Source: Schmidtea nova
Taxonomy: Eukaryota
Assembly: GCA_044892505.1 (NCBI GenBank)
Contig: CM097882.1
Span: forward strand, 542,190,001 to 542,254,000
Direction: 5' to 3'
Length of the DNA: 64,000 nucleotides
Both the position numbers and the translations under genes were made by a program. Below, piece after piece: positions 7,561 through 59,975 of the stretch (the first letter of the stretch is position 1; the number at the start of each line of letters is the position of its first letter). The notes beneath the pieces are model-generated. The model was not told where the DNA came from, made no database searches, and was given only the letters and a program-made list of their open reading frames with translations.

Positions 7561-10375
7561 GAAAAATGATAGCGGGGTATGACATCATATTAAGTATGAA
7601 CGCCATTATAGCACTAGGAGGCGTGACAATCAGTGAAGACGTCAGATTCGGATGTTAATTGAAATGTTTGATGGCTGTAAACGGAAACGAAGTTCAGAGT
7701 TTTTTAATTCAAAGGAAGAACTTCGAAGCAAAGTTCAACAAAGAATGGATGGTATTATGGAATTGGAACACAGAACCCCAAGTATCAATGTCAGATCGAT
7801 ACTCCAAGTTAGATCCAGATAAGCCTAAAGCAGGCCAGGCACTCAACGTCATCGAGCAGGGGGTCAAAAATGGATGGTTAGTAGAATATGGCGAAAACCG
7901 GTTCGGTGAGCCTGTTGGAGCAGTAACTTTACTTCTGGTTATGCAAAAGAACAAGAGCAAAATACGGCCATTGTTCGATTTTAGAGCTTTTAATCATTAT
8001 TTAGACGTCTATAGTGTTGAAGCAGTAGTTTGCAATGAAACAATAAGAGATTGGAGAAATAAGGGAAACAAAATAGCAATTTTGGATTTATCTGATGCGT
8101 ACAAGTAAATCCGGGTTGATGAGAGTATGTGGAAGTACCAGTCATGCATTGTAAACGGAAGGCAATATGCATTGACAAGACTAAGCTTCGGAATCAATAT
8201 CGCTCCCGGTATTATGACAGGGATCGTTAATTACGTGATGGGTTTAAATGAAAGAATAAAACAAGGAGCCAGTGCGTACATAGACGATATTTTTATCGAC
8301 AAAGAAGTTGTCCCAGCTCAAGAAATAAAAGCCTGGCTAAGTAAATTTACCTTAATGACGAAAGAAATTGAACGCCCTTCATCAACAAAAGCTTTAAGAA
8401 CACTCGGATTATCAGTACATATTGAGGATAACGTATTAAAATGGAACCGAGCCAATGTCATCCGGTACGAATTTGAATAAAAGAGAATGGATAGACGAGA
8501 GCTGTATTCATTATGCGGTCAATTAACCGGAATTCTTCCAGTTGCAGGTTAGCTACGACCCGCGTGCTCTTATCTCAAACGATTAGGCGAAGGAGAATGG
8601 GATTGGCCAATCGACGTAAAATTACTAGACAAAGTTAAATGGTTAATAAAGGAGGTTGAAAAGAATGATCCGGCTCATGGTATATGGAAAGCACCAATGG
8701 ACAGAGGAAACATTTTATGGTGTGATGCCAGCTCTATCGCCATAGGAGCAGCGCTAGAAATCGACGGAAATATCATGGAAGACGCATGTTGGTTGAGAAA
8801 GGAGAAGGACGTTATGCACATTAACCTGTGCGAACTTAAGGCGATCGTTAAAGGCATCAATTTATGCATCAAATGGAATATAAAAAAGGTAAAATCATGC
8901 CGGATAACAAATCCGTGTTAAGTTTGGCGCATAATTCCTTGATATCTGCGAGAAAGGTTTCAACTAAAGCTTCCTCAGAAATGTTAGTAAAAGGAAGGCT
9001 CAACATTATTAAAGAACTAATTATTGAATATGAGTTAAAGGCTGAAATAGAATATGTTCCAAAAGACAAACATAAATCTGATATATTAACCAGAATTCCC
9101 TCAAATTGGATTAAAAAACATACGTGTAACACGGCGTTACTAGACCCGGGTGAAAATCCCATCAAGAACGCAGTTGAAATACACAAATTAAGTAATTTCA
9201 GAGGAGACCGGTTGAGGTTTTTAACCGAGGAAGCAGGAATTAATCTTTCTCAAAATGAGTTAAAAGAGATTGTCGAGAAGTGTGACAAATGTTATTCAAT
9301 AGACTCTCATCCAGTTAAGATCAGCAAAGGGCAATTAGAGGTAAAAGATTCTTGAAAACGATTAGCTATCGATGTGGCTAAATTAAATCAAAGAAATTTT
9401 TAACAATCATAGATTGTGGGCCTTCTTGATTGGCGATTTGGCGAGAAATACGAAACGAAAGCGCAGAGGAAATTTGCAAACAGTTGGAACAAATATTTTA
9501 TGAAAGAGGACCTCCTGACGAGCTTCTCTTGGACAATTACTTATTGTTTAGGTCAGAAACTTTCACTTCTCTAATGAAAAAGTGGAGAATTATAACTGAA
9601 TTCAGATCCGCTAGTAGACGAGCAGGCAACGGCATTATTGAGAGGAACCATAAAACAATAAAAGCTGCAGTCATGAGATCGGAATGCTCAGTGCAAGAAG
9701 CAATTTACTGGTACAATAATACACCAATAAATGGTTCTTTCAGACCCCCAATAAAAGGCATTTACGCTTATGACCTAACCCTTTCTAAGGTGGTGGCAAT
9801 ATACTGTACACCATTTTTTTCACGAATAGCTTATCCCGGAATTTCTTGATGCAATGTCACTGAAAGGTAGTGGCAATCATATTGCCACTCTTTCTCCCTA
9901 AAAGACTCTTTTGTTTTTTTCTATGTTTTTATTTTTTTATGATCATTTGTAACTATATAATTATTATTAATAAACTTTGAGTTTTACATCACTTTTAGTT
10001 TCCTTTGCCTTAGAAAGGGCTAAGACTTCGATTTAATGAAACGAAAAAAACGGATCAACAAATAGACAATGGTTTTCAGATTAGCCACAAAGTGTGGGGG
10101 AAACCCACGCAAAATCAACCATGTACATCTTCCTGGATGAGAGGAAGAATCATGAAGCTGCTGTCTCCGCATAAAGCAATCGTCGATTACAGAACCATGG
10201 CAATGCCGTGTCATATAGCCGACCTAAGACACAGGAATGAAGATTTGTTAGAATCTTGGGAAGATGTATAAAGAAGAAGAATTTAAAATAATGATATTTA
10301 AAAGAAAAGAAAGTTGTTTAAATAAGTTGATTTATTGAATGAATATATATTTGAATTAGCTTGTTATCTCACACA
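7560..10375 (+). mobile_element. Degraded LTR retrotransposon pol (PR C-term, RT, RNase H, DDE integrase) with possible short 3' LTR
   Basis: RT motifs KIRPLFDFR, LDLSDAY, RLSFGINIAP and AYIDD; RNase H WCDASS..HINLCELKA; integrase LAIDV..DELLLDN..GNGIIERNHKTIK; C-terminal KVWGKP..CHIADLR at about 10070-10230. A purine run and TGT..CA at 10265-10375 may be the 3' LTR. Confidence 0.85.
9779..10019. mobile_element. piggyBac-type MITE, 241 bp, CTAA target duplication
   Basis: Perfect 12-bp TIR CCCTTTCTAAGG / CCTTAGAAAGGG with CTAA at 9775-9778 and 10020-10023. Removing it restores the integrase frame (AYDLRLRFNE). Confidence 0.9.
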
Positions 10376-10419: not shown

Positions 10420-13400
10420 TATGTTTGTTTTAAGTGAAGGTAGGTTTGATTTTCTGTCAAATAGTTTGTATGCTGGACTTTCGTTGTCGATTGAGTTCGG
10501 TGTGTTTTTCAGTCCCAGTAAGATTGTCGGGAGATGAGTTAGACAATTTCTGTCGTCTACTTTAGTTCTGACACTTTCCTTTAGTGTTCTGTGCAGTCTT
10601 TCGATGTTTCCGTTTGCTTTTGGGTTGTGAGCGGTTGTTCTGTTCTGTTCTATATTGTATTTAGTACGCAGAGTACTGAATAATTCTGATTCGAACTGTC
10701 TCCCTTGGTCTGTTATCAGGATTTTTGATTGACCGTAGCGAGCTATCCAATTGAACTCGATGCTGCTACAGATGTTTTCGGCTGAAATTTATTTTAACGG
10801 GATTATCTCGAACCAGTTTGTTTTTCTATCTATTATTGTTAGAAGATATTTGTAATCTTTGTTTAGTGGAAACGGTCCGACTATGTATATATGTATTATT
10901 TCAAAAGGTTGGCTACTTGGGAAATTGACTTTTTGAGGTGTTTCTTTTTTTGATATTTTGTTCATTTAACAGCTATTGCATGTTTTTACGAAATCTTTGA
11001 TTTTTTTTCTCATATTTGGCCATATGTATTTGTTGTGAATTGTTTCGTAAATGTCTCTGCTTTCTGGATGACTGATGTCATGGATTTTCGAAATATATAT
11101 TTTCCCAAACTCTTTTGGTAAGAGTATTCTTGGTGTGTTTCCGTTGCTGACATCGTACCAGAGATCGTTTCTTTTCTCTAATTTCAGGCTGTGTTTTATG
11201 GGAAGCTCTTTTAGATTTTTTGATTGTTTGTTTTTTATTTGTTCATTTTCTATTATTTCTTCAAATTCCAAGGAGTTTATGTCACTTTCTATTCTAGATA
11301 GAGTGTCTGCGCAATGTTTGATTTTCCAGCTACATAATTTATGGTGCAATTAAATTGTGAGATAAAATTTAATTGTCGAATTTGTCTTGGAGATGGATTC
11401 TTCATCGCTATTGCGTTTATTAGGGGTTTGTGGTCTGTATATATCTTTAAGGTTTGACCTTCTAGCAAGTGTTGAAAATGTTTAATTGCATCATGTATTG
11501 CTAGGAGTTCTCTGTCGAATATCTGATTTCTTGGGACTTTAGGTTTTTGAAAAGAATCCTATAAATTGTTTTCCGTATTGATTGTCCTGGTAAATTGTTG
11601 CACCCATTATAAAACCCGAACAATCTGTTGTTAGTTGATATTCTAATTCTGGATCTGGATATCCGAGTAATGTTGCTTATGAAAGGCTTTCTTTAGCTTT
11701 TTCGAATACTTCGGTTGTTTGTTGTGTCCAATTGATTTTGACATTTCGTTTTGTTTTGCTGAAGTTATTTAGTGGTGCCAATAATTTGCTACAGTTAGAA
11801 ATGTAAGAGTGGTAAACGTTTACCATTCCCAGGAATCTTCTCAGTTCCCTAATGGTAATTGGCAATTTGTAATTTGTAATTTGTAATATTGTTTATTTTG
11901 TTTTAAATTTGTTTTGTTCCTTTTTCGTTTACCCTGTTTTTTGGTTATAAGGTACTACTCCCTTCTAAGGTACGACATTATTAAAGTTTTTGGAAACCCA
12001 CGATTTTTGTACTATCTTTACAAAGGTACCACTTTTTACTAAGGTACTAATTCTACGTTATAATATTTAATAAATTAATTTAAAAAAAATTAAGATACTA
12101 ATAATAAATCAATAATTTTTTTAAATTATATAATTAATTTAACAAATTCAAATCAAATTGAAAAATGGCAGACAAAAAACGAAAAACATATACAATACAA
12201 TTTAAAGAAGCTGCTGTGAATTATGCTTTGAATTCATCCATTTCAAAAGCAGCTGAACATTATGGCTGTCACATTAACCTCATCAAGCGATGGAAAAAAC
12301 AAAAAGATCTTCTGCAATCGATTGGGAATAAAAATGCATAAGTAGTAAAAAGAATTCGACCCATTCAATGGCCAGCATTGGAGGATCATTTGAAGAAATG
12401 GGTTATTCAGCAAAGAAAAATGGATTTCCAGTTTCTGGAACATCAATTTTGCGAGAAGCCCGAGCACAGGCAATACAAATGAAAATTAACAGCTTCAAAG
12501 GATCTTTATATTGGATTTTCAGTTTTTTGAAAAGAAATAGACTCACAGTTCGAGCTGTTAGTTCAGTTGGCCAGAAGTTTCCAGATGATTGGGAAATAAA
12601 AATGAAAAGTTTTGTTAATTTCATTACATATTTCTTGATGGAGAAAACTTTCCTAGTGAAGAGGAAGTAGAATTTTTTAAATAAAAATTTTTAATACTTT
12701 TTATATTTTCTGAGTATAAATTTTTTTACCGTTTTTCTAAGGTTACACTTGATACTAAGGTACTATTCTTTACTAAGTTACCTTTGGGCTCCAAAAAAAA
12801 CTTTTAAAGTTTACTAAGGTCGTACCTTATAACCAAAAAACAGGGTAACGTATGACCAAGGAAATTTATTTCGGTTTTCATGAATTCGCAATTTTGTGCG
12901 TTGATTTTTAGTTTTGTGTTTTTTAATGTCTCGAATACGTTCTTTATGTTTTTTACATGTGTTTCCTTGCTTGGGCTGGTTTTTAAAATGTCATCCAAAT
13001 AGGCGATTGTGTTTTTGTTGCTTTTCATGGTTTGATCCATAAATCGATGGAAAGTTGCTTCTGCATTTCGTAGACCAAAAGGCATTTTGTTGTATTAGAA
13101 CATTCCAACCGGTGTTGTTATTGCAGTCTTTTTTATGTCTTCTTTCCTTATTGGGATTTGATGGTATGCTTTTTGCAGATCTATTTTTGAAAAGTATTTT
13201 GCTCCCTTTATTTGGTTAATTATGTCTTTTATAATTGGTAATGGGTAGCTGTCTAGTTCTGTAATTTTGTTTAGAAGTCTAAATCAACCCAGACTTTCCA
13301 TTCATAATTTGCCTTTTGTTTTAACATCAAAGAGGAAGACCATTCTGAATTCGAATGTTTGACAATAATGTTTTCCAATAATTCGTCGAAAATGTTTTTC

Positions 13401-13974: not shown

Positions 13975-15070
13975 ACAAAAAGCATAATCAAAAAATAAAA
14001 TCGTTATTAGAATAAAGAGAATAATTTATTAAAAATTGTAGAAGAAATTCTTATTGAAATACCGTAAAAATAACAGAAATCGGAATGAAAATAGAATAGA
14101 ATTGAAATTAAATTTGATTCTTTTAATCAATCTATTAACACGCGGAAAAGGTGGACGCACACAATTTTAAGAGAATTAAAAAATAAATATTTAGAAAATA
14201 AATATAATAAATAATAAAATTAAATTTACGGAAAATAAATAAATAATCATTTATTAAAATAAAAAATTAAATATTAAAAAAATGAATTAAATGGTAAATA
14301 TTTTTGTTTCAAATAACAATGCGAAGGTGTCACAAAAAACAGTATACATAGAAGCAGAAATATCATAATTTTAACACAATGTTATCAGTAAACTACACAG
14401 AACACATTTTTAAAATTTTGTTTAACAGAGAGTGATTCTATCAGCCAGAACCAGTCATTGTATTTTGTTATTCAAGTAGAACGGTTTTCGCAGAACCACT
14501 TAAGTAGATTTTATTTTGTGTAATTTAAATTAGAAAATTTTATATTGTACGTAATAAATATTTGAAATATCATTATTTTTGTTCGTTCAAATGATTCCCG
14601 ATTAAAGTGATTTTAGGAGGGGCTCTGTTAGTGCATATGGTACGAGTTCCTGATCGGTTGGAGGTACTGAACCGAACAGTCAGTTAAGAGACTTCGTGCC
14701 ATCGTTGGTTAAATTGTATGAAATGGCGAGGGATAGCGGAAATTAAAGGATGATTATTCAGATGATTTTGGGAATAAATAAGTGTAGATCTCAGATAGGA
14801 TAAAGGGATAAAAAGCTAAAAATTATTCATACGACAGAACCGTAACGTAAATATGTGCGTTAGTCGTTCTAACGGAAGCAAGAACCCGAAAGAAAGAATG
14901 TAGTGAGTAGTTTTGGCAACGAAGCTCACCTGCTTACTAGATTATCACCACCATGTACATAACCAACATAGTACCAAGGAGTAACCATGGGTACACGAGA
15001 GAGGTTGTTTAACATTTATGGTGGGGTTTGGGTTGTAGTAATCCCTAGAAACCAATAATAATTGCGTAAC
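13975..15070 (+). repeat. LTR-like long dispersed repeat, copy B (partial, approximate)
   Basis: Collinear with the 3' two-thirds of copy A, for example aataaagagaataatttattaaaaattg and gaagctcacctgct. Confidence 0.7.
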
Positions 15071-18600: not shown

Positions 18601-21600
18601 CAGGTAATAAAATGAAAAGGAACAGGATAATATTATTTTCTTTGTCGAAAATCATCAATTTATTGTTATTTAAACTTTAAATTTGCTATAAAGCCTTATA
18701 ATATTATTTATCAACCTTTCGAATATTAAGATAAAAAATTTTCATATATTACCAAGATTGTTCTAATTGTAACACATAGAAGGAAACGATGTGTATGACT
18801 ATTAAAAGGTAATTAAAGTTGGAATGAGGTGTTAAAATTAATATTTATTTCGAAATTGTCTTTAAAAAATTTATCAAACATCTCTAAAAATAAATGCCGT
18901 TGCTGTTAGACGATCAGTTGATTTTGCTTTTCCAAAAATTTAGTATATAAACTTAGCTGTCTAAAGTGTGACTCAACTTACATAGGAGAAACACATAGAA
19001 CTTTTTGCACCTGACCTAATGAACACTAAAAATAAAACCAGTAATTATTACGAACACTGGGAGAAAGTACATAAAATGATCTCATTTATAGACGAATCAA
19101 AAAGTCAACTTTTACAAGACCGATTCAAAAATTCATTACAAAGATTAGCTTCTGAAACTTCTTTTATCAAAAAACAAATACCATCCATCAACATTCAATT
19201 CGCACAAAAATCATTTTTAAAAATTTTAATTAAATTAAAATAAAATTTATCCAATAAAATCATTTTAAACTAATAAAATAAATAATTAAATTTCCTACTT
19301 AAGATTAATTTAATATTACGATTGAAATACACATTTTATAACGGCTGTATCGAAATATCGTGTACCTAACAACCAAAAAAAATTTCATCTAGTCTTACAA
19401 ATTTAAATATGAAAATTATTGAATTTAATAAAAAAATATGTTACATTTAATTATTGATTACTGTGAATAAGTTTTTATACATAAAATGGATCCAATTGAG
19501 GAAAACGAAATATTAAGAGAAATATCAGATATTGATGAGTAGATTATCTCTGAAAGTGAGATAAAATACGATAAAAGTGACGGAGAATATGTAGAAGGAA
19601 AAAGAAATGATGAATAATGTCGCAAGAGATAGAATGACATTGAAAAAGAAACAAATTTTTACAGCACATCATAAATACTATAAAAGAAAGGAAAGGATCC
19701 GTATCTTGCGTAAATACATCAAGTATAAAATCAATATTTAATTATTTCATCGCTGATGACGTAATGAATTTGATAATTGAAGATGGGAATAGAAAAGTGC
19801 ATCATTAATAGAAAATCGATAAGCGATCGATAAGATAACACTAGTGGCATTAATTGAAAGTTTTTACCTACTCAAAATAGCAGGACATCAATTGTATCAC
19901 TTTGGAAACAAGATGATCCGTTTGATTTATTTATATTTACAGCATCTCTTTCAAAAAATCGTATGCAAGAAATATTAAGAGCAATAATATTTGAAAGAAC
20001 GAAGATAAATTAGCAGCAAATAAAGATGATTGTAATTTAGTCGTGGATAAATTTAAAAGTGAATATATTCCGAGATTAAATAAAAAAAGTTGTCTGAACT
20101 TAGATATAAATTTTACTGATGCCGATTTCGAAATAGTTTTGCTCACAATCTCAACAATTTTACCAGTAAAATTAGCAGTTGAGTCGCTATGTCGTGAAGA
20201 CGCCAACTTACTCTCCGCAGATGCTACATTTATATTTATGTTTGATGCTTTAAATGAAATTAAATAATCACTGAACGAAGAAATTGTAAGTGTAGTTTCC
20301 CTCATGTTTTGAAACCACAAACTCTCAATTCACTGTTGGTTGTTGTAAAATAAATGGGACTTTTGGATAAAAATCCAGTTCTAGAAGAGCACAATGAAAC
20401 CGAGTATTAAGCATAAAGTAATACACCTGAAAATTCACTGAAGAGGAAGTTGGACGAAGCAATTCTAAAACGAATAAATTATAAAGTTGTCGCCAAAAAA
20501 CTTGAACACGGCATCTGCTGAAGTGATTAAAAAAGAAATGAGAAAATTTTAAGATGAAGTTGTACAGAGAAAATATCTTCAGCAAGTTTAAGAATTACTA
20601 TTAGATTTCTTTGAATACCGGTATTAATACCTGTATTCCTGCATTGTTATTCCTTAATACCGGTATTGATTTTCCTTTCGGTTTTTGATTCCATAAAAAT
20701 AACAAATAGAGTGAAATATTGAGTTAGTAGTTGTTTTTATTGCGATCTTGACACAAGAAAACTTTCTAGATCAAAACGCGCTGTTTGCGAAAAGTTTAAA
20801 TGTCTCTCACTTTTTAAAATCTATTTTGTGTCTCGACTGTTCAACTTAAACTGTCAGTGAATAAGTAAAAAAAAGTTTTACCAGCCATTTTTTGTCTAAT
20901 TTTTCAACAATTTAAATTTTTTATTAACTTAATTTCATAAAATTAACATCATACTAAAACTCTGTAAACTCACTTTAACCCTTGTTTCGATTGTACTGAT
21001 TATTGATTCTTTAATTCTATATAAACATTCAATCTTATATTTATCATTTAGTAGTTTTATTACTAAGGCTACATTATCTCTGTTTCAATTGTCCTCATCG
21101 CTTTAAATCTTAAATAAATGCAATTTAATTAGTCATTACTATTAAACGAAACGAAACTTATAACACGTTAAAATTTGATCAATATTTGTATTTCAGAAAT
21201 TATGGTTTAAAGGCAAGACCAAAAAGATAATTTTGATCTATTTCTGAAGAAAAAATAAAATAGTTTAAATCAATAATTTTCATATTAAATTAAAATTTTT
21301 TGACTGTTAGGTACACAATGTTTCGACACAGTCTTTATCAAGTGTGTATTTAAATTGCATTTTTTCAAGGTTTAAAACGATGAGGAGAATTGAAGCCGGG
21401 ATAATGTAACCTTAATAATAAAACTAATAAAAGATAAGGGAATGATTGAATGTTTATATAGAATTAAATAATCAATAATCAGTAAAATCAAAACAAAGAT
21501 AAAAGTCTGTTTTTACCGTTTTAGTATGATGTTAATTTTCAGAAATTAAGTTACTAAATTAAATTATTTATAACATTTTTTTTGTAATCGATTTTTTTAC

Positions 21601-24600
21601 TTACAATTTATAAGTATTATAAAATAATAAACAAATTATCTAATATTTGAGGTATTTTTTCTCCTTAAAATTCTGTAGCTTGTATTAAAATTTAAACTTT
21701 TTGAACCAAAAATGGAAATTAAAGTGCATTTGGTGAAAACTATCTAAAATTATATATTTGCTTATTTATTAAACAAAAATTTTAGAAATTTCATTTATCA
21801 TTAAATTTCTTCACGTTTGATCTTTTTTTGATTTGATTTAGTTTACTGTTTTCTAATTTAGAAATTCTGTTAATAGAAATTATTTTCTATTGAAAATATC
21901 ATTAAACACCTCAAATATTTTGTGATAAATTTTATTTAAATCGTGACATCAATATATAGATTTTGTATTGCACATTATTTGAATATTGCAAAATTTACTT
22001 CTAGTTTTGAAAAAATTTTATGTGCGCAATATTTTTCATAAAGTTATTAATTATTAATATTCTGTTCAAAATAACCAATAAAGTTTAAAAAAAATCCCAT
22101 CAGAATCAGTAATTGTATGCATTGGATAATTTTATAATTCCGTGTTTATTGAATCGATGATGAATGGAATTATATTTATTGGTTTGAATTATTATCCCAA
22201 TGACATATAGATTGACAAGATAATTTGGCTTATAATTGACACGAGAGTTGGCCTGTGAAGAAAAAGCGAAGCGTACTGACAGTTACTGTAATGATGGATC
22301 GATAATTGACACAGTCGATGTGCATTTAATAAAGCGCGAGTGCGCTGATTCGGCTGTCGCATTCGAGTGAGCGCGGGGTTCTTCTATATGCATTCTCAGC
22401 ATTTTGATAAAATTATGTGCAATTTTTTTAAATGACAACCTGTCTCGATAGCATTAACTTTGATTTGAGAAATCGATACTCAAACGGATGATGAATTACC
22501 CATGGGTAGAATGGGGATGAGAATTTTCTTTCTCTCATTTTGTATATGATTCCAATAAATTAATTCCTTTGATGTCACGACTTGATTAATAATTCAGGGG
22601 CTAAACTTTGCATTTTATTCCATATTTCTTCATTATTTATTCTATCTATAAATTATCATTAATTTACTGTTTGCAGAATGTTTTTTTTAAGAGAAACTTG
22701 TTTTAATTTCATTTTCTCGCATAACAATGTGAAATCTTAAAATGTTCTTTGTATTGTAAAACGCAGAAATGATTTATATTTCATCATTTATATTTGCTTA
22801 TTTATTTTCATGAAATTTTCTGTTCGATATTCTTGGTTATAAATAATATTTTTTTTTGAAATTTAATTAATTTTTAATATTTGCGCATTTTCGATTTGTT
22901 TTTTCTTCTGTTGCATTAGATAAATATCTAATTTTCTTGGCAAAAAATATATTTTTAAAGTAGTCTTAATTCTGAATGTTATGCTACCAGTTACCGTACA
23001 AGTTCTGTTGCATTGTTTTCATATTATATATTTTCATCTGAAAATAAAAAGTACTTATGTAATAACATTAGCACTAGTTTGTCAAAATCAATATATTATG
23101 AAATATGAATTTTTGAGACTTATAGAGCATAATATATTGAATTATTGGAACAATATTAAATTAGTAAACATGTGGATCTATTTCATTTTTTACTAATTCC
23201 TTGCAATTTAGAATTTTTTACATTAACCCTTAAATGCATTGTGATGGAAATTTCCATCGTACCAAATATTTAAATATAATTATTTATGATTAATGACAGC
23301 GATATATTTTTTTAGTCTGGCAATAAGATAAACAGTCTGTTTATGGATTCAAGTGAAAATAAAAATAAAATCTATGTTTCTGTCTATGTTTTTTGTCAAT
23401 AATAATTGTGATAGCACATGGTCAGTGTTCTGGGGTTTTATAAAGTTTTATTTTCAAATTTCCCAACTATTACTCATCTTTTCAAGGAGAAAAAAAATTC
23501 AAAATGTTTAGCAAAAATGTTAGTATTTATAAATAAATATTTTATTTTTCTTAAAAATATAAAATTCAATGAAAAAGCTGTTAATTATAGTATGATTGAA
23601 ATTTACATCATCATGCAATTACTGTCATACTCTTTCATATGGAGTATTGCTATATTGAATAAAGTTTGTGAGGATATTTAGACATGTTTTTAGCGAGTAT
23701 TAAATTTAAAATTAAATAATTATTTGGAGATAGCTAAAATAAGTTTTAAATGTTTTATTAAAAATTTTATATTAAATAGAATAATAATTTAAGTAAATTT
23801 TATAAAATAATTTTTAATTAAAAAAGTTTTATCTTTAAAAAATAATAAATATGAATGAAATTTTATAAGTATTTTAAATAAAAATGCTCGTTTTTAAATT
23901 TGTTTAAATATCCTCAAAGAGACAAACATTTTTCTATTTTTAAATAAATATTTTGGATGACTTTAGAATTCGAGTTAACCGAAGATGTTTGAACAACATC
24001 TAACATGACAACCACGTCAATCGAACTATTATTGCGAAAATTAACGCCGGATGAACTAACGAAAGAAGGCGATGTTGAAATATTTATCCAACAATGCGAG
24101 AAATATTTTAAGATTGAAAAATTAACTGGCTTCCGACAAGATATCCTGGTAGGACTCTGAATCCACAAGTAGATCAAAGAAAAATATTTCCAAGTTGATC
24201 CGTCTATTAAAGATTATAGAGAAAGACTTAGGATAGCTTATACAAAAAAGACCACGATAGCGCGGGATATTAAAGCCGCGTTTAAATATAGGCAAACTAA
24301 CGAAGAACCAGAGGTTTATTTTGGAAAAATAAAGAGTCTGGTGGACAAACTTATGAGTCATGAATGGATAGCAGAAAAATTAGAAGAAAAATGAACAAAT
24401 TTTAATTGAAAATCGTCAAAATCATGACGAGGAAGGTCCTCCTTTGATTGGAAGGCAAGAAACTGCAGAAAGCGAGATAGCACGCATTCCATCAAATAAT
24501 TTGATAGCTGACTTTCAGAATAAAAGAAAACTAGTGTGGAAAAAAACCAATATGGTGCTTGATGAAAATAAAACTAACTTCAAAGGAAATTCTGATTTTA

Positions 24601-27600
24601 CGTATGAATTATCACAACTAGAAACTCCCTATCGATGCTTCAACTATTTTATTACAGATAGTAATAATGCAACACATTTTGGATGAAACAAATCTGTTTG
24701 CTATTCAAAAAATGCCGAAAGCCCAATTACTTGTTCTGAAAAAGATTTTTAAAAATTCTTGGGTATTTTGTATATGTCTGTACAAAATTTTCCTAGCACA
24801 AGGTTATATTGGTCTCCAAAATACGGATATAAACCAATCAGTTCAGTGATGTCAAACAATAGATTTGAAAAAATTAAATGTGTTTTACACATCAATAATA
24901 ATCAGCACAAGGCAGTAGGTGATCCTGGACACGATCGCTTATTCAAGATTCGACCTGTTATTCATCATCTAAACGAGAGATTTTCAACCATTCCCATGAA
25001 ACAAAGACTTTCCGTTGACGAACAAATGTGTGCTACAAAAGTAGCATACTATATCAAGCAATATTTGCCCAACAAACCTAACAAATGGGGATTCAAATTA
25101 TATGTTCTGTGCAATTTAGATGGCATTACTCATAAAATTGAAGTTTATGCTGGCCAAGATAATTAAAGCAGACCTGAAAATGAACCAGATATAGGAGCTA
25201 CTGGCAATGTCGCGTACTACTTAGCACCACAGGGAATTCAGTGTGTTGGTACTGTGCTGCAGAACAGAATTCCAAATTGTAAATTACCATACAAAAAGGA
25301 ATTCATGAAGAAAGCTATCCGAAGAGGGTCTTTTAATGAAAGAATGACATCACATCAAGGTATAGATATTGGATTGAACATGAGCTGGAAGCTAAAAAGA
25401 AGCGAGCGAAAATAGCAGTAGTACCTGGAAAAGACGTACGAAAAGATGGAGTAGAACATTGGCCAGAAATATGAAATTCACTTTAGTGTAAATTGCCTCT
25501 TTGTAAAGGATATTCGACAGTTCGATGTTCTAAATGTAAAGGTGATTTGTGCTTAAACAAAAACAATAATTGTTTTTATAAATTTTCATTCTGAATAATT
25601 TTTTCATTTATAATTATACAATATCTCATTACAAATCTGATTCTAGTTGACAGACCATACTCACATTATAATGGAAATTTACATCATACTATTTTTTCTT
25701 TTAAAAATATACTTTTTTTGACTTTGATTTTTTAAATTATATTTCCCTAAGACTTCACCTTAAAATACACCATAAAACATTGTTTTAATGCAATACAAAA
25801 AATCATGTATTTAAGGATTAAACATTTTAAAATAGAAATGTGATAACTTTTAAGAGATTTGAAGATAAGTGATTTATTAATTTCAATATAGAAGTCACTT
25901 CTACATGTCTTGGTACATAATTCATGTTTTTATATTAGTTTTTGTTTATTGATAATAATTATTAACTTGATGAAGTTTGTCACTTATTAATCAAAATATA
26001 TTAGTGCTTTAAAATTATTAGGATTTTCATCCTTTAAAACATTAGAATCAGTTTTACAACAATTTGAATCCATAACTTTTATTTCAGAAAAATATAATTA
26101 TCAAAATAATGTTTTCTTAATAATTTGTTATTTAAACAAATTTTCAAAAAATATTTATCTAATTAAAACTATTTTTATATTTTAAAAATCAATCTTAAAA
26201 TTAATTTTTAAAATTTTTCATTAAATATTTTTCATTGAAAATTTCTTAAATCTTCCAACTTCCTTATATCCCCCTTCTTAAGAAATTTTTAAGTTTTTCC
26301 ACATTTCTTTCAATCATTTTACCATTTTCATTTCTTAAGATGTATCGTCTGTCATGCACTTTCTCGATCACTTTCTATGGACCTTTATATCTGTCCTGGC
26401 TTTTATTGCGTGTTTCTAATTTTACTAGCACTTCTTCTTCTACATTGAATTTTCTCCTTGTTTGTTCTTCTAGTTCTTCCTTTACCGGTATTTCTTTGGA
26501 CCCGTACCATTTTCCCCTACTAATCTTTTTTTTTTTAAAACTATCTCTGCTGGGCTTTTTCCTATCGTTTTTTGTTTGGTTGCTTTTAATGTGAATTCGA
26601 CTTCTGGTAATATCTCTGTCCAATCCGTCTTCCTTCTATCCTGTAAAGTAGCATTTATCAGCTCCCGTATTGTCGAAAAACATATTTTAATATATAGAAT
26701 CTTTGTGAATTCTCTCATCATTCCTGATTCAAACGCCTTTCCGCAATCAACTCTTATCTCCTTTGGGCATCCAAATCTTAAAATCCACTTTTCTAAAATC
26801 GTTTTCTTTATTGTTTCTTCGTCTTTTTTTGTTATCGCTGTCAAGACTTGATACTTACTATACTGGTCTATTATACCCAATATATACTTCTTACGTCCTT
26901 TTGTTTCTTTCAACGGTCCACATATATCCACGAATATAATTTCGAACATTTCATTTGATTCTTGTTTCTTTACTGGTTCTTTCGTTGTTATTGTTATAGC
27001 CTTGGTTTTTTGACAAATCTCACAACTTCGAACAATTTCCTGAATCTGACTCCACAGGTGTTTTCCAACATATCTATCTTTCATATAATCGGCTATCTTC
27101 TCGACTCCCGCATGACACAATAGTCTATGTATTTCCTTTATTGTTTCTTGTAACTCATTTTCAGGTATCATCGTTTTCTTTCGTACTTCTTCTACAATTC
27201 AATGTTGGTCGTTGCTTCTTCCTTCTTCTCTGATCGAGTCTAGTAATCTGGTTTTTATCTTTCCTTTCTTAGCTTCTTCGTGGGCCATTTGACACTGAAC
27301 ACATGTGTCACATTTAGTGATTAATACATTTTCTGTATTCTACGCTTATATCTAAACTGCTCAAATAATTGATCCATGTTTGGAATTGTGAAGTAATCGG
27401 CTTCTTGGTTGTCATCATAAACGTGATTGCTTTGTGGTCTGTCCTGAGCGTGAATCTTCTTCCGTAGAGATAGTGCTTAAAATAAATGCAAAAATAATAT
27501 ACCGCCAATAGTTCCTTTCTTGTAATACAATATCCTTTCTCATGGCTCGTCATCGAGTCTGATCCATACGCAATTACTCTTTCCTTTCCATCTTTATCTC

Positions 27601-30600
27601 TTTGTGAAAGTACTTCTCCGATGGTATCAAAACTAGCATCAGTATCTAAAATGAACTCCTTTTTCAGATCCGGAAAACATAAGATTGGCGCCGTCGTGAG
27701 TGCTAATTTCAATACCTCAAACACGCTATTCGTTCCTTCAGTCTATTCTAATTTTTTGTTACTCGGTCCGCTACACTATTGTTCTAACATCCTTGCCTTC
27801 TTTGCATACTCACTGATGAATCTTCTATAATAATTGCAAATACCTAAAAAGCTTCGGAGTTTCTTTACGCAATTTGGCTTCCCAAAGTTTTGTATGGCCT
27901 GAATCTTAGATGGACCTGTCTGTACTCCTTCCTTGCTGATTATGTGTCCTAAGAATCTGATTTCTTTCTTTATTATTTGACACTTTTCTGGATTAGTCCT
28001 TAGTCCTGCTTCCTCAATCGCCTTTAACACTTCTCCGAGTATTGTATAGTGTTTCTCTTTACTGCTTGAATAAATCAAGATGTCGTCCAAATACACCATT
28101 GCTCCATTTATTTTGCCTAATACTTTTGTCATCATTTCTTGGAACGTACCTGGTGCTGCTTCAATTCCAAAAGGCATTCTGTTGAAACAATATTGTCCGT
28201 TCTTTGTTGAGAAGGCTGTTTTCTCTTGTGATTCTTCTAATTCCACTTGGTAATATGCATTACCTAGATCGATTGAGCTGAAAAAGACGGATCCTCCTAA
28301 CAAATCCAGCATCTCTTCTATGTTTGGCATTGGAAATTCCTGCCTCTCTGTTACCGTGTTCAGCTGTCTGAAATCCAAGCATAGTCTAATATCCTTTTTC
28401 TCTTTTTTCCATACACATATTAACGGCGTGTTCCATGGAGACTTACATTTCCGTATAATTCCATTTTCGTACAAATTTTGTATTGCTTCTTCAATCTTTG
28501 ATTCCAAATTTAATGGTTGGCGATATGGTTTTATGTTTATCGGCTCACCTCTTGTAACTATCTTATGTTTTACCAAATGTGTGAGACCCACATCTCATTT
28601 ATCTGCCATAAACACGTTTCCACTGTTTGTTATAATTTCCTTTAATTTGCTATCTTCATTGATCTTTAACTGTTCCAACGCTCGTATCAATCGTTCTTCA
28701 TCCTTTATTTGTCTGCCAAATTTTGCTTCAATGTTGCAAATATAGTTCTTGTTTTTTTCACTAGCCTCGATATCTTGAATTTTTAACAGTCTAAATCCAA
28801 ATGTTTCTTGTAATTCGACTCCTCCAATCACATCTGGTGTCACTTTCTCCGCCACAATGAATATAACTTCCTTCGAAATATTTCCAATGGTTACTTTCAC
28901 CTTTGTTTTTCCTATTGTCTCGATCGTACTCTCGTTTGCGCATCGTAACTTATCGTCACTTTTCGTCAATTGTTTTCCTCGTAACTTGTTAAAACAGTTC
29001 ACACATTACATTGATTCTTGCACCAGTGTCTAATAAACAGTCGAAATTTTCCCCATTCATCCTTACTGTTATACTAGGCCTTCCTTGCATTTTTTAATAC
29101 AAAATATTAACAGCCTGCTCCGTTTTAATGGTTCCAATTCTTTCCACTTCCTCTTCAAACATTTTTCTCCTTAGGAACCTGTATACTTTCTCGCTTACCC
29201 TTCCTACATTCTCCCACTTTCCTGCCCCTTGAGGATATCCCATCAAATTTTCTGTTAGTATATGGCTCCAATCAATTCCTCTACTGGTGGAGCCCTGTTG
29301 TTTGGGTACATCTTCCTAAAATTATCTTCATTTGTCTCTACACACGATTCCCTCACTTCTTCTTCCTCGATATCATTTATCCGACTGTATCTGTTTCCCG
29401 TGAGTCTTTGCCTCTCCATTGCTCTCCTGTAACTCATTTTTGTATAACACTCCTCGGATCTATGACCATTTCTACTACATCTTTCACAACGTATTTCCTG
29501 ACACAATCTTCTTATATGACCTTCTTTCCCAAAACCAAAACATTTTGGAGTTTTTTTATCTGGACAATTTCTACTTATATGTCCGCTTCTATGACATGTC
29601 CAGCACTCTATTTTACCTTTTTTTGGACAATCAATTTTCGTGTGTCCTATTTTGTGGCATAACCAGCAATCTGGTCTTTCTCTTCAAATACTTTCTTCTC
29701 TCTGTTCTTTCTGCTTGTACTGTACTCTTCTCTGTGGCTCCTGATAGACCACTCTGACGTTTATCCGATATCTTTGCTTGTCCACTTTATCCATAAGAAT
29801 TAGTGTTTTCTTTATTTCTTCTGTGCTTTTTATCTTCCGTAGTATTACTTCTTTCTCGACTTCTTTATTGTCAGCACATACTATCAACATCTTTGCTGTT
29901 AATTTCTCTTTCGTAAATTCTTTATTTTCAAACAAAGTTATCAACAAGGTCCTCCACCTTTTTAAAATATGTTTCTATTTCTTCACCCTTCCGCTTGTAA
30001 TTCAACAAGCTTTGCAGATCCTTTAATACATCTCTTTCGCGATCGAATGCCAATCGCAACCTAGCCTGGAATCCTTCTGCTTTTTCAGGGTTTTGGCATA
30101 CACTTCTAAGAGATCCTCATCAATCATACAAGATGTTAATCTTTCCTGATCTCTCTTCTGCTTGATTCCCTTGGCATCGAAATAAATTTCGCATCTTTTA
30201 ATAAACTTTTCCAAGTCGTCACCTTGGCAGAACACCCTTGGTATCAATCTTTCGGGGATTGCGTCAGTGTTTACCGCTGCCACCATATTAAGATTTTCAT
30301 CCTTTAAAACATTAGAATCAGTTTCACAACAATTTGAATCCATAACTTTTATTTCAGAAAAATATAATTATCAAAATAATGTTTTCTTAATAATTTGTTA
30401 TTTAAACAAATTTTCAAAAAATATTTTTCTAATTAAAAATATTTTTATATTTTAAAAATCAATCTTAAAATTAATTTTTAAAATTTTTCAATAAAAATTT
30501 CTTAAATCTTCCAACTTCCTCATAAAAATCATTAATTTTTAATCTTTTATTCGTTTTACGATGTTGTTAATTTTAGACAATAGAACAAATGTTTTCCCCT

Positions 30601-33600
30601 ATTTTGCGCAAATTTTCGGCACTGCCTTTTTAAAAATATTTAATAACATTTGTTAAAGATAATTCTGTAAATTTGTGTTAAATCAAAACAGGAAAACTTT
30701 GATCCATTGTTTAAAATAATAAAAATAAACAAAATCATTAAAAATTTTAATGTTTTTGTTTTGGCCATTTTGTTGGTGGATTGTTATTTTTATTCAAAAG
30801 ATATTTAACTTTGAGATAAATTTTTTAAAATGAGGATAATTATGAAGTCCTCAGTGAAGTTTTCTATTTAGTAGTTCAAAATATATAGTATATTTTCGAT
30901 AAGTATTAGGGTCTGAATCAATTGTTCTAAAATCCAAATCCATTTTTATTAATTTATTTGAAACTTAAGAATTTACGTAATTTTTCAGTGAGAAAAGATT
31001 TTCTAATTTTTTACGTTTATCAGTATGAGATGTAAAATTAAAAATATTTTAATATATAAAATTTATTATAAATATATATTTATTTTAAATATTATATATA
31101 AATACATAAAGTTGGTCAAGATATCCAAAAGTTTATTGTGAAAATCTAATGACTTTTGTAATATTAAATAGCGAATAGCGTTTGAAAAACAATTTTATCA
31201 GAACATTTTTGCCTGGTAAAGCTTTAGGAATATGACGTAAACTCTGAAGATGTGTATAAAAACAACTTATTCGAGTATTTCACAATCACTCAACAATTAA
31301 GAAAATTTGCAGAAAGCACTGAATAATAATAAAGGTGAATAAAATGTAATAAAAAACTTTTGGAAAAGTTTGAATAAGCTGGTTGAAATATTCTAAATCA
31401 TAAACGCTAAAATTAAAACAACATTTTAAACATAGAATAAACAATACTGTTTTAATAAGATAAAAAAATAATTAGAAAAATAATTAATAAGGTACTGGTA
31501 GAGCTGAACTCGAAAGATGCAGTGGTATATTTAGATATTTTAATTGTTTTTCAAGATCTGTTCAATAAAGTTAGGAAACATTTGGCCTTGGAAACGTTTA
31601 AATAGACTCTTAAAATCTTTATCTTACACAAGTTTTGTATCTAAAATTTCTCTATTTCTAGAAAATTATCGTGTGGCCCTCCAAAAATATTAATTTTCAT
31701 TAGGCCCTCGGCACAAAAGGTTGTCCACCCTTACTATAGAAAAACATTGTAAGGCAATAGAAAGAATTTTTAGAAAAATAGAGAAAGCAGAATTAAAATA
31801 AAGATCTTCAATATACCATTTTTATAAAAGAAATAAAATTTGTTAGACACGTCAATAAAGAATTAATTAAAATATCCAGATAAAATAAAACTAACAAAGA
31901 TAATGAAATATTAAAATACTTAAAAAAATTAAAGAGTTTCTGGGGTCTGGACAATTTATTCAAAAGTTTACAAAACAGTGGAAAAAATCGTTGGAAGCGT
32001 TCTGGAACTAATCAAAAAAAACTAATATCTACTGACAAGTGTGAAACGAGTTTTGAAAATGTTAAAAAATAGACTAAGTTAAACCATAGTTTTGATATAT
32101 CAAGATTTCATAAAAATGTTATATTAGATACAGAAGCAAGCTTCGATAGAATTGGAGCCGTACTCTATCAAATACAAAAAAACGATAATTAAAGAATTAG
32201 TCTATGGTTTTCATGTAATAAGTAAACGCGAAATAGGTTACTGCATTTCACGAAAAGAATTGCTTGCTAATTATTATTTTTAAACATTATGTGTATGGCA
32301 AATCATAAGGCAAATTCCTTCATAATGAAAACCAAGAAACTGTTGACACCACAGTTTCAAACATTAATGAATTACTTAAGTAGTTCAGATATTGATTTAC
32401 ATTAAGGGAAGAAGAAATCTATTTGAATGTCAAATCTACATGATGTCAAGAAGTAATGATCAATATGTTTTCAATGTTAAATGATGCACTATGATCTTAA
32501 AGTAAGGAAACTAAAACCAAGTATTATCAATGATGATTGATGATGCAGAAAATACGGCTAAAGGAGTGAGATAAAAAAAGTGATAATCACAATGAAATAT
32601 CAGTAAAATAGGACTAGTCAAATTTTTCATTGATTATGGAATAGTAAAATTTAAAAAGGTTAGATATATATGCAAGAAATTAAACGAGAATATATCGAAA
32701 ATTACTGCAAGAAGCTATTTTATTTGTGAGATGTTTTATCAGAAACATTGAATTGCTAAAACTTCTTAAAAATTTGGAATGTGAAATGTAAAACTAAAAA
32801 CACTTATATATTAAAAAAATTTAAATAATTAAAAATATAAGCCTCAGTATGTTGTGTTGAATAAATGACTGAAATCTTTCCTTCACACTCATTCACACAC
32901 ACACACACACACATAATATAATATAAATCTGTATATCAATATCATATTTTGTGGAGTTTTTGTGCACAATTCAAAAAATATGCGCATTTATCATCAAAAG
33001 TTTACCCTTCAATTGACAAAAATATTTCTCGGAGAAAAGATATAATTATTATCATAAAATTTGCACCATTTTACAATTTACAGTGACAAATAAATAATAT
33101 GTATATGTAAGATGTGTAAATAACACCTATCATTATTTCAATATTTATTAAATAGTGATAAATATTGAAAAAAGTGGTTTAAATATTGTGATTGAAATAA
33201 ACAGATTTGAAATTAGTCTATTTTAATTAATTAATTATTATTAGCCAAATCCGAAATATTACTTGGCGTCACGAGCAGGATAAGATTATCTGCACGAATT
33301 TCTATTTAAAGAAAGTATTTCAAAGTTAATAGTATTCAAACGTGGATGATCAATTTAAATATCCTTGGAAAAGCACACCGAGCCGGCAAAAGATATTGTC
33401 CAAAAATTTAATGATCAAGAGTTGAACAGACGAAAAATTGGATTTATTTTTAAAATTTTATGATGAAGATATTATTAAGGAAATCAGCAGTAAAAAGAAA
33501 TCTGACGAGAAATCGACAATAGAGTATTATTCCGAAAGATTTTTAAACTTTGAAAAAAAATTTAGAAGCTGACAATATTATTGAAATAATCGATTTTATG

Positions 33601-42600: not shown

Positions 42601-45314
42601 AAAGCGGGGTGGAAAGGTTGAATTATAGCAGTTAATTGTTATAATATTTAGTTACAAACATAATTTCATTAAAATTAAACTCTTACTGGACTTTGGAAAA
42701 TTATTTAAATCAAAAAAATAATATTTATGATAACTTTTACAAATATTAATTTAAAATAAATTAATGTGAAAATTAAGGTAATCCAAGTAATACAAACGAA
42801 AAACAAATAACTATTTCTTTTAGAATATAATTTTCATCCTAGATCTTATAAATTATTTTAATAGTTTCAAAATTATATACACTTTTAGAACTAAATATTC
42901 ATTTACCAAAATATTGATATCTTATATGTGAAAAATAACTAACTTTATTTTATCTTTCCAAAAAGTAAATATGCTGCGATCCATAAAAAATAAGTAATGG
43001 CAACGCATATTTATTCATTTTCTTGTATTCAGTTTTATATTGATTTCAATCCTCGGATTTCGCTTTGTATTTCAGCATCATTTTATTATTTCTTACTACT
43101 GGTGAATGAATTGGGATATCAAACCAATCATAAAACCGAATTCTCATCTCATCGTTTACTGCGTACGACATTAACATGACAAAAACATGTTACTGCTTGC
43201 CTGCGATAATACATCAATTGTTATTGAATATTTGATTTATTATTCCAATTTATAGTCGAATTCACCATTCTCTCATTGGAAATGAACCTAAATCCATTAA
43301 GACGACTAATATACACACTCAAACACATGTTGTATTTGTAAGGTTCGGAATTAAATGTCTTGCTGTATAAGTCAATGTTTCTTTTTTGTTAGGAGATAGA
43401 TTCTCAGTCATCCAATCAAATACCCCGCAAATTTCTGAATTTTCTTTCCATCTCAATTACTTTTTTGTCGAATTATTTATTTTCCCATCAATAATTTGTT
43501 TCAATGTAATTGTCTAATATGCGCCATTTACTTTTGCTCAAAAATGTCAACCTGCAAATAAATCACAAATTCACTTATTTCTATAATAAATCTATTTCAC
43601 TTCTTTATTCTAATGTCGCGGCTGGTGCTCATAATTTTTCAATTCATCAATTGGCTGTTGCGATTTTGTCTCAATCATCTTAATCCGTTGCTTTATCTAG
43701 TTTGCATCTATACATCAATAACAATAATTAATGATCAAACTTCATTGATTGATTTGATGTTTTTTTCCATATCTCTTCTCAGCAATGAGTTCTCATTCTT
43801 CATTTCTGTCGTGTTGTCTTTCTCTTAATTTTTTATCTCGAACATTTTTTTGTTAAAATCACAAATAATAATATAATATTTTAATAAATTTAATTCTTGA
43901 TTACAATGTCTGTTCTCTCTTCAATTCGACAATATCATTCATTGGTGATTCCATCTTTTGACGTAAATAGTTGCCCAGTACAATCAATAATTTGCTATTG
44001 AGTTCTCATTCTTCATTTTTGTCGTGTTGTCTTTCTCTTAATTTTTTATCTCGAACATTTTTTTGTTAAAATTACAAATAATAATCAAATATTTTAATAA
44101 ATTTAATTCTTGATTACAATGTCTGTTCTCTCTTCAATTCGACAATATCATTCATTGGTGATTCCATCTTTTGACGTAAATAGTTGCCCAGTACAATCAA
44201 TAATTTGCTATTGAGTTCTCATTCTTCATTTTTGTCGTGTTGTCTTTCTCTTAATTTTTTATCTCGAACATTTTTTTGTTAAAATCACAAATAAAAATCA
44301 AATATTTTAATAAATAAATTTACTTCTTGATTACAATGTCAGTTCTCTCTTCAATTCGACAATTTTATTCATCGGCGATTCCATGTCTTGACGTAAATAG
44401 TTGCCCAGATCAATCAATAATTTCCTATTGAGTTCTAATTCTTCATTTTTGTCGTGTTGTCTTTCTCTTACTTTTTCATCTCGCATATTTTTTGCTAAAA
44501 TCACAAATAATAATCAAATATTAATCAAATACTTCTTGATTGCATCGTCAGTTCTCTCTTCAATTCGATAATTTAATTCTTCGCCGATTCCATCCCTAGA
44601 CGTAAATTTTTGCTTAGATCAATCAATAATTTGCTATGGAGATAATTATTCTCATTGAGGGCATTTATCATTCCATTATTTATCACTTCATTCATTTCAC
44701 ATCCAATTTCATTGAATGAACCGTTGATCGGCTGTTTTTTGTCATGCGATCTTTTATATATTTGTAACTGGTCTTTAAATTCACAATTTATCTTAATATT
44801 TGATCATAATTTCTGAATTTTGAACGGAAGACCAATGGTAATATCTTTTGGATTTATCATTTTCCTTTGATAAATCTCTAAATAAATTCCTTTTGATGTT
44901 CCTAGACTGAACTTATCATATCTATTTAAATAATGCTCAATGCAATCATAGCAAAAGTGACATTCACAAAGACCATTGTAAGCTGTTATCATTAATTCCC
45001 CATGTTCCTAAAGAATTAAATCAAAGTAACTGAGTAAAAATATTTTTATATATTTTAAAAATTTTCACGAAATACTAAAATTCAGCCTGCGACCTACATT
45101 TTGAGAACCTTCGTAATTGATAATAAATGACAAATAAAATATTTATTAACTGTAATTTAGTTAATTAATATGATTTAAAAATTTATGAATATATGTGAAT
45201 AAACAAACCAATAGATTATGTACTAGAAATGAAATAAAATTCTTTAATTGGGCAATGTAGGCTTATAAATTTTTTAACATTTCGTTACACTTTGGTTATT
45301 ATAATTATCTTAGC

Positions 45315-50527: not shown

Positions 50528-52084
50528 TGCTTTTTTGATTTTCTTTCTAACTATTTTATTTTATTATTTATTTTTATTATTGGAATTATAATTTTTCAAA
50601 GATGTTAACTATAACCATAAGTCTTTCATTGGATAGGGAAATTGAGAACCTCATAGGAGTTGGAAAATGGGAAGAGTGACTCCTTGAACCGGATTTAATT
50701 AGATAAATAAAATTTTAATTTATGATTTTTGTAAATTCTTTAAATTAGTAGTTGTAAACTTTTTGTTCGATTTACCATTTTCACCATTTCCATAACAACT
50801 GAGCGCAAAATAAATTTGTAAAATATATTAATTTAATCTAGCCAATCTTGTTCTAGGTATTACCTGATTGCATGTATTGGGGCTAATCTTCTCGTTGTTC
50901 ATACGTACTTAATAGGTGAAACATTAAACCCGCCTCTTAGTTTCCTTTTAATTTAGCTGAAAAGAAACATTATTTAATTTAAGGTAATTGAATTCAAAAA
51001 ATGAGATCAGAGGTAAAACCAAAATATAATTATGAATTATTTTAATAAAATAAGTTTGTTAAATAAACAAATTTTGGTAAGGCTAAGAATTTCAGAGGTA
51101 GTAAGAAATTTCAAACTACTAGGTTAAAAAATCGGAATTCACTGTAAAAAATAAATGCAACGTAAAATATCTTCAGACGTAATTTTTAAAAATATGATGT
51201 GCTTGCTTGTTTGTTTATTTTATAACTTTTAGTAAAAAAATTTATATGTACTCGAGAATAAGACCATGGTCTTTGTAATGTACTAAATTTTGTTGTTATT
51301 ATTATTTTTTTTTCTTATTGTTACGATTCGTATAGTGATGTGTGGGTATTGTGACCCCCCCCCCTTCTTTTTTTGTTATTTTATTCTTACATTTTTTATT
51401 TTACATGAAAATTAAATTAAAATTCAATAAGACAATTTCTATAGAAATTGCAAAACCAAAATAAAATAAGAAAATTGTTTAGAGAATTTCAAAATTAAGA
51501 ATTTAACCGAGAGAAAATTAAAACAAATTGAAAATATCTAATAAACTAAAGCAGAGGTGTCCAAACTACGGCCCGCGGGCCAAACCCGGCCCGTCAGGCG
51601 ATTTTATCCGGCCCGCCAAGGATTTTGAAAAATTTCGTAAAATATAAATGTAGCGTGGCGCGCGGTATTAGATCTCGCGCAGATGACGAGCGCATTCGGT
51701 TAGAATGAACCTGTTATCACACTCGAAAAAGTACAGTCTGGTATTCAAGTTTTTTTCGGTAGTCGGCGATGCGAATCAGTCGCTCGACTACAATAATGAT
51801 TTTGTACTCTGACTGTACATAGGCGGGGCGGAGCGGCAGACTGCACTCAACTGCAGCGCCAGCAAAGCTACGAGATTGTCCACAAAAAAAACAAAAACTT
51901 GTCGGCCGCGGAGCTTTTTTACATTATTTACAGTTGATATATTGTAAATTAGTATGTTTAAAAAAAATACAACTTTAGTCAATCATAATAACAAAAAAGC
52001 AATCCCCACAAATTAGTATGTTTAGATTTATATTTAATCTATTATAACTTAATTAAAATAAAAATTTTTTTTTTAAAGTTGAAC

Positions 52085-59734: not shown

Positions 59735-59975
59735 TAATTTGTTTTGTTTGTGTTTTTTCGTGGTTCCTTCTTGCTCTTGTTCAATTTAAATTTTGCTATT
59801 GTTTTAATTCATTTTTCCTGTGCTTCTAATATTTTTGTTTATTTGGTGTTTGCTCAAATATTTTAGTATACTTCTTGCGTGGTCGCTACATGCTATATCC
59901 GCGCTCGCTTCTGAATTAATGGGATTTAGTTTTTGCCCAACATTATTGTAAACTTTTAATTTTTAGATTGTCACA
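59735..59975 (-). repeat. LTR-like repeat 5' fragment (copy F), begins TGTGAC
   Basis: rc aligns closely with 85-310 (tgttgggcaaaaact; aaacaccaa.taaacaaaa; attagaagcacaggaaaaa). Confidence 0.8.

Follow-up and report, generated by a model that had tools for sequence, protein, structure and literature searches.

The 64,000-nucleotide stretch of Schmidtea nova DNA analysed here (the window; contig CM097882.1, positions 542,190,001 to 542,254,000) contains a decayed Ty3/gypsy element of 4.5 kb on its minus strand, at 26016-30524, whose long terminal repeats (LTRs) begin with TA and end with TA in place of the canonical TG...CA. We find that these TA...TA ends, flanked by a 5-bp target-site duplication (TSD), are shared across the family, are inherited, and were present at integration. 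The lineage belongs to the known class of elements with non-canonical ends, here in Ty3/gypsy. A re-programmed integrase is likely not the best reading of this departure. We favour instead, with a probability of about two in three, a tolerance across a wider clade for either pyrimidine (Y, C or T) before the terminal A, which would have allowed reverse transcription to spread two point changes.

The limits of the window copy are fixed independently by several of its parts. A local alignment of the two LTRs, with 30 flanking bases added on each side, breaks off exactly at TAT(G/A)AGGA and TC(T/C)TAATA, the same starts and ends that the initial annotation had read; between these limits, 6 mismatches and a single 14-bp indel separate the 5' from the 3' LTR. 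The polypurine tract (PPT) adjoins the start of the 3' LTR and the primer-binding site (PBS) adjoins the end of the 5' LTR, and AAAAT flanks the element on both sides. These features had been used to place the element at 26016 to 30525, and they do fix its ends; the right copy of AAAAT, however, lies at 30525-30529, and the element therefore ends one base earlier, at 30524. The parts are as follows:

26011-26015, no strand: left copy of the TSD, AAAAT as read on the plus strand, in the register set by 33 insertions
26016-26268, minus: 3' LTR, 253 bp, first bases TATAAGGA, last bases TCCTAATA, from the LTR alignment
26269-26279, minus: PPT AAGAAGGGGGA, adjoining the 3' LTR, the commonest form (14 of 27 3' LTRs)
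26485-27339, minus: integrase remnant (H2C2 and rve), interrupted by a stop, by a frameshift in the direction of RNase H and by a ~17-codon gap, from Pfam and from tblastn with a sister-copy open reading frame (ORF)
27317-27742, minus: RNase H remnant (Pfam RT_RNaseH, E 7e-31)
27779-28594, minus: reverse transcriptase remnant, with premature stops at both limits (Pfam RVT_1, E 2e-32)
28595-29100, minus: protease region, frameshifted and with approximate limits, from translation; aspartyl-protease Pfam matches occur only in related pol proteins and in no window ORF
29258-30343, minus: gag remnant with four zinc-knuckle-like motifs (zf-CCHC Pfam) and 4 stops, its frame starting from an ATG that lies 19 codons inside the 5' LTR
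30273-30285, minus: PBS TGGTGGCAGCGG, the complement of the 3' end of the genome's tRNA-Leu(TAG), with 0 bases between it and the LTR
30286-30524, minus: 5' LTR, 239 bp, first bases TATGAGGA, last bases TCTTAATA; an in-frame ATG takes its A from the final base of this LTR
30525-30529, no strand: right copy of the TSD, AAAAT as read on the plus strand

The window copy alone also permits a second 5-bp TSD candidate, TAAAA, with ends TG...AA. This register, the kind of equally good alternative that the initial annotation had said would undo its boundaries, is confined to the window copy and is excluded by the 33 insertions described below, whose TSDs are 5 bp at TA|TA ends.

The Pfam domains on the minus strand run in the order zinc-knuckle Gag, RVT_1, RT_RNaseH, H2C2 and rve. 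This is the gypsy order (reverse transcriptase-RNase H-integrase) and not that of Copia, in which integrase precedes reverse transcriptase; together with two direct LTRs, a PBS, a PPT and a TSD within the range of 4-6 bp, it identifies the element as Ty3/gypsy (Metaviridae). The best solved-structure matches of its integrase are foamy-virus and Ty3 integrases, and the named matches are '412', '17.6' and 'Ty3-I'. Neither gag, with its 4 stops, nor pol, with stops and frameshifts, is intact, and the gap of ~17 codons in the integrase core removes the part that carries the third catalytic residue. The 4.5-kb element holds no env-sized ORF, the PPT following directly after the integrase region, and the combination of AGT...AnT termini with env that marks the errantiviruses is absent. 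In a poly(A) run with the same species label, 748 reads fall on the element, on both strands, of which only 2 are at ≥99% identity; this is a low signal at the level of the family and says nothing about the window copy or about activity.

The TA...TA ends are a property of the family. Two LTR searches were made of the source genome (1.25 Gb), in which the best 40 of 765 and the best 40 of 668 first-look candidates were scored. The 97 loci gave 85 distinct LTRs, and 81 remained after four were dropped (three with an alignment missing an end, one duplicate). In this set (family 1), 78 LTRs start with TA, 3 with AA and none with TG, while 78 end with TA and one each with CA, TT and AA. The initial annotation had proposed that the termini and TSDs of sister copies be tabulated, and the copies are not mostly TG...CA: TG starts number 0/81 and CA ends 1/81. 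The 81 LTRs were ranked by their likeness to the query, and a second sample was therefore picked by the PBS alone. There, 60 sites were fetched and 59 read (1 could not be oriented); 49 were related, 45 of them not chosen for CA, and these 45 end U5 with TA in 44 cases and with TT in one. A second family, with LTRs only ~67% like those of family 1, has TA...TA ends in 24/30 (TA start in 26/30, TA end in 28/30). The LTRs here are about 240-285 bp long.

The TSDs point to the same ends. We examined 33 insertions, 19 of them paired LTRs and 14 classed as solo (one "solo" is actually a 3' LTR). At TA|TA ends an exact 5-bp TSD is found in 23, and a TSD with at most one mismatch in 31; exact TSDs of 3, 4, 6 or 7 bp are found in none. 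When the pairing of flanks was shuffled 5000 times, the mean number of exact 5-bp TSDs was 0.99 and the maximum 6. LTR pairs of family 1 are 0.8-4.4% divergent, and the insertions were therefore spread over a period. The suggestion that the change was present at integration is thus confirmed by the counts at both LTR ends, by the PBS-picked sites and by family 2. A search for TG...CA members inside the TA families (CA, then 0-3 bases, then the PBS) gave 7 matches, with CA directly at the PBS in 3. Two of these, L105 and L108 (the third is L107), start with TA, and the other LTR of L105 ends with TA; their CA therefore looks like a change in a single copy.

The changes CA to TA and TG to TA are those of repeat-induced point mutation (RIP), and a RIP-like loss of CpA and TpG might in principle have turned TG...CA ends into TA...TA after insertion; equally, the true ends might lie elsewhere, with the TG at positions 3-4 as the start. 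The 71% AT content of the genome window and the TAAAA duplication that the window copy alone permits would fit such an artefact. Yet the TG at positions 3-4 is kept in 78/81 LTRs, directly beside a start that is TG in none, and family A in the same genome (described below) keeps its CA in 30/30. Full-length TSDs occur only in the TA|TA register. In addition, TATGAGG aligns to the TGTGAGG of relatives at an equal distance from the PPT, and TA therefore substitutes for TG and is not an extension. Survival of the TG at 3-4, the CA of family A and the TSD register together refute both decay and shifted boundaries, and we give this account practically no chance.

Integrases of the retroviral type are generally taken to require a terminal CA with almost no exception, and where TA...TA ends have been documented, they belong to plant Copia elements. 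AtRE1 of Arabidopsis has the same TA...TA ends (10.1101/137141), and Copia elements of lotus are reported to mix TATA, TGTA and TACA ends within clades and, like the families here, to combine TA...TA with short LTRs (229 bp for lotus TATA) and several end types per clade (PMC9804982). These are Copia elements, whereas the lineage here is Ty3/gypsy, with the order reverse transcriptase-RNase H-integrase, a Gag start in U5 and a tRNA-Leu primer. One-ended changes are described for TARE1 of tomato, a TA...CA Copia element for which the model is a terminal mutation spread by reverse transcription (PMC3701649), and for AcCOPIA1, a TG...TA Copia element named in a study that also gives TG...TT and AA...CA ends in Rosaceae (PMC5659011). 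The likeness lies in a single terminal mutation copied to both LTRs through reverse transcription; in those elements one end is changed, whereas here both are, and both one-end states occur among the relatives. Gypsy elements make up 11% of the classified non-TGCA plant elements (10.1101/137141).

Animal gypsy groups are described as TG...CA except for the errantiviruses (PMC3601003; PMC5408687). The Metaviridae Mag A/C, CsRN1, Sushi and rGmr1 have TG...CA ends and share with our element the superfamily and an inverted repeat of ~7-8 bp (TAT-AGGA / TCCTAATA here, TGTTRNR...YNYAACA there; PMC3601003), but here the second base is A and the penultimate base T. Saci2-like elements of tapeworms are reported with TGT...ACA and 4-bp TSDs (PMC12471100). 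The errantiviruses gypsy, ZAM and Idefix, with AGT...AnT ends, are likewise animal gypsy-group elements without terminal CA and with a palindromic target preference (PMC5408687); they have, however, lost the terminal A, use strict 4-base targets and often carry env, whereas here the A is kept, the TSD is 5 bp and the preference is loose. Thus the initial statement that non-canonical ends are found mainly in plant Copia elements holds for TA...TA, but overlooks the long-known errantiviruses. Our searches of published papers (Repbase, Dfam and GyDB aside) showed no verified animal TA...TA gypsy family, and yielded nothing usable on tolerance of C-to-T changes at LTR ends. For the annelid Lamellibrachia, an animal genome dominated by Gypsy, the motifs TATA and TACA are listed by LTR_retriever, as given there without a family-level check or a superfamily (PMC8220671). 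As the motif library of that program includes TATA (PMC8220671), the expectation that LTR finders would miss this lineage applies only where TGCA is strictly enforced and no more than one mismatch is allowed; such filters do undercount intact-looking elements in genomes of this kind.

Relatives with other ends are present in the same genome. The genome has the PPT with TGT after it 239 times and with TAT after it 165 times (controls, at most 1). A set of 40 sites with a TG start divides into several families, with integrase identity of ~50% and another PBS, TGGCGACCAC, presumably for tRNA-Arg. Family A is TG...CA in 27/30, and families B and C are TG...CA in the copies with both ends visible. 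Family M is TG...TA in 22/28 (2 dropped), and 9 of its 15 solo-classed LTRs have an exact TSD. At one locus, L293 (G000:C1:67960720-67966720), a 1224-codon ORF without a match to the gag or pol of the window element lies upstream of the family-M PPT. About 65 pol relatives of the element were found at 46-59% identity. A metagenome set comprised 78 loci, from which end types were taken only for close ones showing both ends: L168, L169, L170, L173, L174 and the more distant L178 are TG...CA, L202 is TG...TA, with the TA end on both LTR copies, and L165 is TA...CA. TAT also follows the same PPT in sequencing-run contigs of two other organisms (X9 and X17, both loose ends), and the U3 change is therefore not confined to the source assembly.

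A tree of RNase H-integrase was built from 48 of 51 rows (L151, L297 and L302 were dropped for low cover), with the Shimodaira-Hasegawa-like approximate likelihood ratio test (SH-aLRT) on 28 rows; its rows were anchored on the TA-family protein, and curated gypsy references are absent from it. Both TA...TA families form one branch (FastTree 0.997, SH-aLRT 99.5). Family M groups with the TG...CA lineages C and L173, and L202 with L174. Because M and L202 are placed among TG...CA lineages, TA at the U5 end appears to have been gained more than once, and we infer at least three gains. The outgroup L178 has a Leu PBS and TG...CA ends, which makes TG...CA the likely ancestral state.

In the reading that we favour, the integrase of the wider clade would need the terminal A and accept C or T ahead of it. 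Two point changes from TG...CA, C to T at U5 and G to A at U3, would have produced the present ends, each copied to both LTRs by reverse transcription. The U5 change would have been free of coding cost. In 24/24 copies read, an in-frame ATG is made up of the last A of the LTR and the two PBS bases that follow it, and in all of them the preceding codon is AAC, AAT or CAC; the C-to-T change is silent because it falls on the third base of that codon. In the Gag frame the last 19 LTR codons are stop-free in 77/81 LTRs, compared to 0/81 in the other two frames, and across the clade 14 of 15 lineages, all but L172/L177, have this frame open over at least 16 codons of U5 (0.12 expected by chance for each). 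An upstream ATG was not found in two copies with an open U5 frame. The reading frames indicate that Gag begins inside U5 (window 30286-30343, and clade 5' LTRs), and the terminal A of the LTR is likely held twice.

The PBS of the TA families matches tRNA-Leu(TAG) of the source genome, and in five copies (L043, L107, L141, L152 and L356) 16-19 bases of the tRNA-Leu complement are found where 13 are usual, as expected if the primer is copied into DNA. The genome has 824 matches to the 3' motif of this tRNA, and a tandem array of tRNA-Leu(TAG) with a 664-bp period begins at about 149.1 Mb of G000:C1 (L313-L316). The same PBS 12-mer occurs with different upstream sequence in two other repeat families (L109, L111 and L115; L121, L132, L153, L155 and L161), and eight PBS-like 12-mers lie 1.5-2.6 kb apart in G000:C1:361225169-361240140.

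Two more speculative steps may bear on how the tolerance works. The PBS adjoins the LTR throughout the clade, compared to 1-3 spacer bases after CA in distant relatives. Such an abutting PBS could leave the U5 cDNA end ready to join with little or no 3' trimming, the step where CA marks the cut. In foamy virus, trimming is limited to one of the two ends (PMC6784120), and ready-made ends thus have precedent. Secondly, a His stands at the position of foamy-virus Pro214 in 62/62 readable clade relatives (of 65), and might loosen the reading of bases; Pro214-Gly218 of the foamy-virus integrase intrude at the viral DNA end (PMC6784120). Two-LTR circle junctions, which would reveal untrimmed cDNA ends, gave 2 matches compared to 3 in the control, neither of them a junction. 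The full version of this proposal is tentative and rather doubtful: in an unnamed and widespread clade, cDNA ends without 3' trimming and a His for the end-loop Pro would mean that only Y-A is read; TG...CA would have been left repeatedly (for TG...TA, TA...CA and TA...TA), the U5 end being held by the Gag frame in its stead. If true, it would provide a natural four-state series on why CA is otherwise invariant.

The integrases themselves were compared by mapping positions on the foamy-virus integrase, with loop positions in what we take to be HIV numbering. The equivalents of HIV Y143, Q148, G149, K156 and K159 are identical in TA...TA and TG...CA families, and the altered end-recognition residues that the initial annotation had anticipated are not seen there. 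In HIV, Y143, Q148 and K159 contact the DNA end (PMC3185514). Nor is the proposed lineage-specific change of end recognition supported as stated, because family M, L202 and L165 have TA at one end with ordinary integrase residues.

A co-evolved switch, in which the integrase of the TA...TA lineage now prefers TA-3' ends, is the alternative that we take most seriously, although we consider it unlikely. Two families with diverged LTRs have TA at either end, and no reverted subfamily was seen in them. Several further observations weigh against clade-wide tolerance. The TA...TA lineage differs at 20 of 111 columns conserved in TG...CA lineages, which leaves room for a shift in integrase preference, and two of the 20 lie close to the active site, one of them 6 residues ahead of the catalytic Glu and the other 8 residues past it. 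Where both ends of a His-clade member can be seen, they are in most cases TG...CA, which suggests that C is still favoured. The TA...CA state of L165 was read from one assembled LTR only and could be private to it, and the node uniting all relatives with the Arg-type PBS has support of 97.4 in IQ-TREE and 0.355 in FastTree, on TA-anchored rows. The residues near the active site, however, do not single out the lineage. The first is Gln for Asn, and Gln is the general gypsy and foamy-virus residue. The second is Glu for Asp, at the position of HIV K160, a reported specificity position (PMC3185514); L165 shares this Glu, but so do 16/62 clade relatives, making the match with L165 unremarkable. 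At these columns Asn and Asp are retained in M and L202, each of which has TA at one end, as is the TG...CA residue at most of the readable ones among the 20. No diagnostic integrase residue for TA ends held up, and where a family has TA at one end and CA at the other, a single integrase must serve both.

The TA...TA copies could also be passengers, mobilised in trans by the integrases of TG...CA families. An unbroken pol is found in no copy examined (37 loci), the longest stop-free stretch being 549 codons; the examined TG...CA families, however, are broken as well. TSD length and target preference are the same as in TG...CA families, and one copy, L162 (G000:C1:394427400-394433600), is a chimera of a TA...TA-family 5' LTR and gag with the pol and the TG-starting 3' LTR of another family. 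Against this, the lineage has its own gag and pol and its own branch in the tree, and between the two TA families its integrase gene was subject to purifying selection. Integrase divergence between the families is 0.119/0.105/0.208 by codon position, compared to 0.066/0.060/0.081 and 0.119/0.105/0.153 within them, and the differences exceed decay mainly at third positions. The selection indicates that the lineage moved on its own enzyme. Passengers would in any case need a tolerance of TA ends, and we regard this largely refuted explanation as very improbable.

The shared target preference is loose and palindromic, approximately AT-N-[R-T-N-A-Y]-N-AT (flanks of L031-L097 and L317-L406). AT at positions -3,-2 outside the TSD is found in 50/94 half-sites of family 1 and in 20/36 of a TG...CA family, with 22/46 and 16/41 in two other sets, against a background of 0.118. 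Trinucleotide-repeat-like half-sites make up 8/94 in family 1 (background 0.5%). As the TG...CA family has the same preference, target choice is not linked to TA ends. The lineage, for which at least 165 exact junctions of PPT and TA were counted, has kept TA...TA over two families, and the TG...CA and TG...TA relatives with the same TSD and target preference in one genome are matched natural pairs on the role of the penultimate C. The finding shows no new chemistry.

Other repeats are present in the window. More distant gypsy-like gag and pol remnants lie at 7929-8297, 10450-13283, 24023-24391 and 31920-32531, and hAT-type transposase remnants (Dimer_Tnp_hAT, zinc fingers) at 48642-49589 and 51992-53899. 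Dispersed, inverted and tandem repeats (111-223 / 59830-59942; 611-925 / 13977-14301 / 62983-63283; and further 1715-2321, 20920-21558, 43786-44641 and 53996-54768) are probably elements like miniature inverted-repeat transposable elements (MITEs), together with minisatellites.

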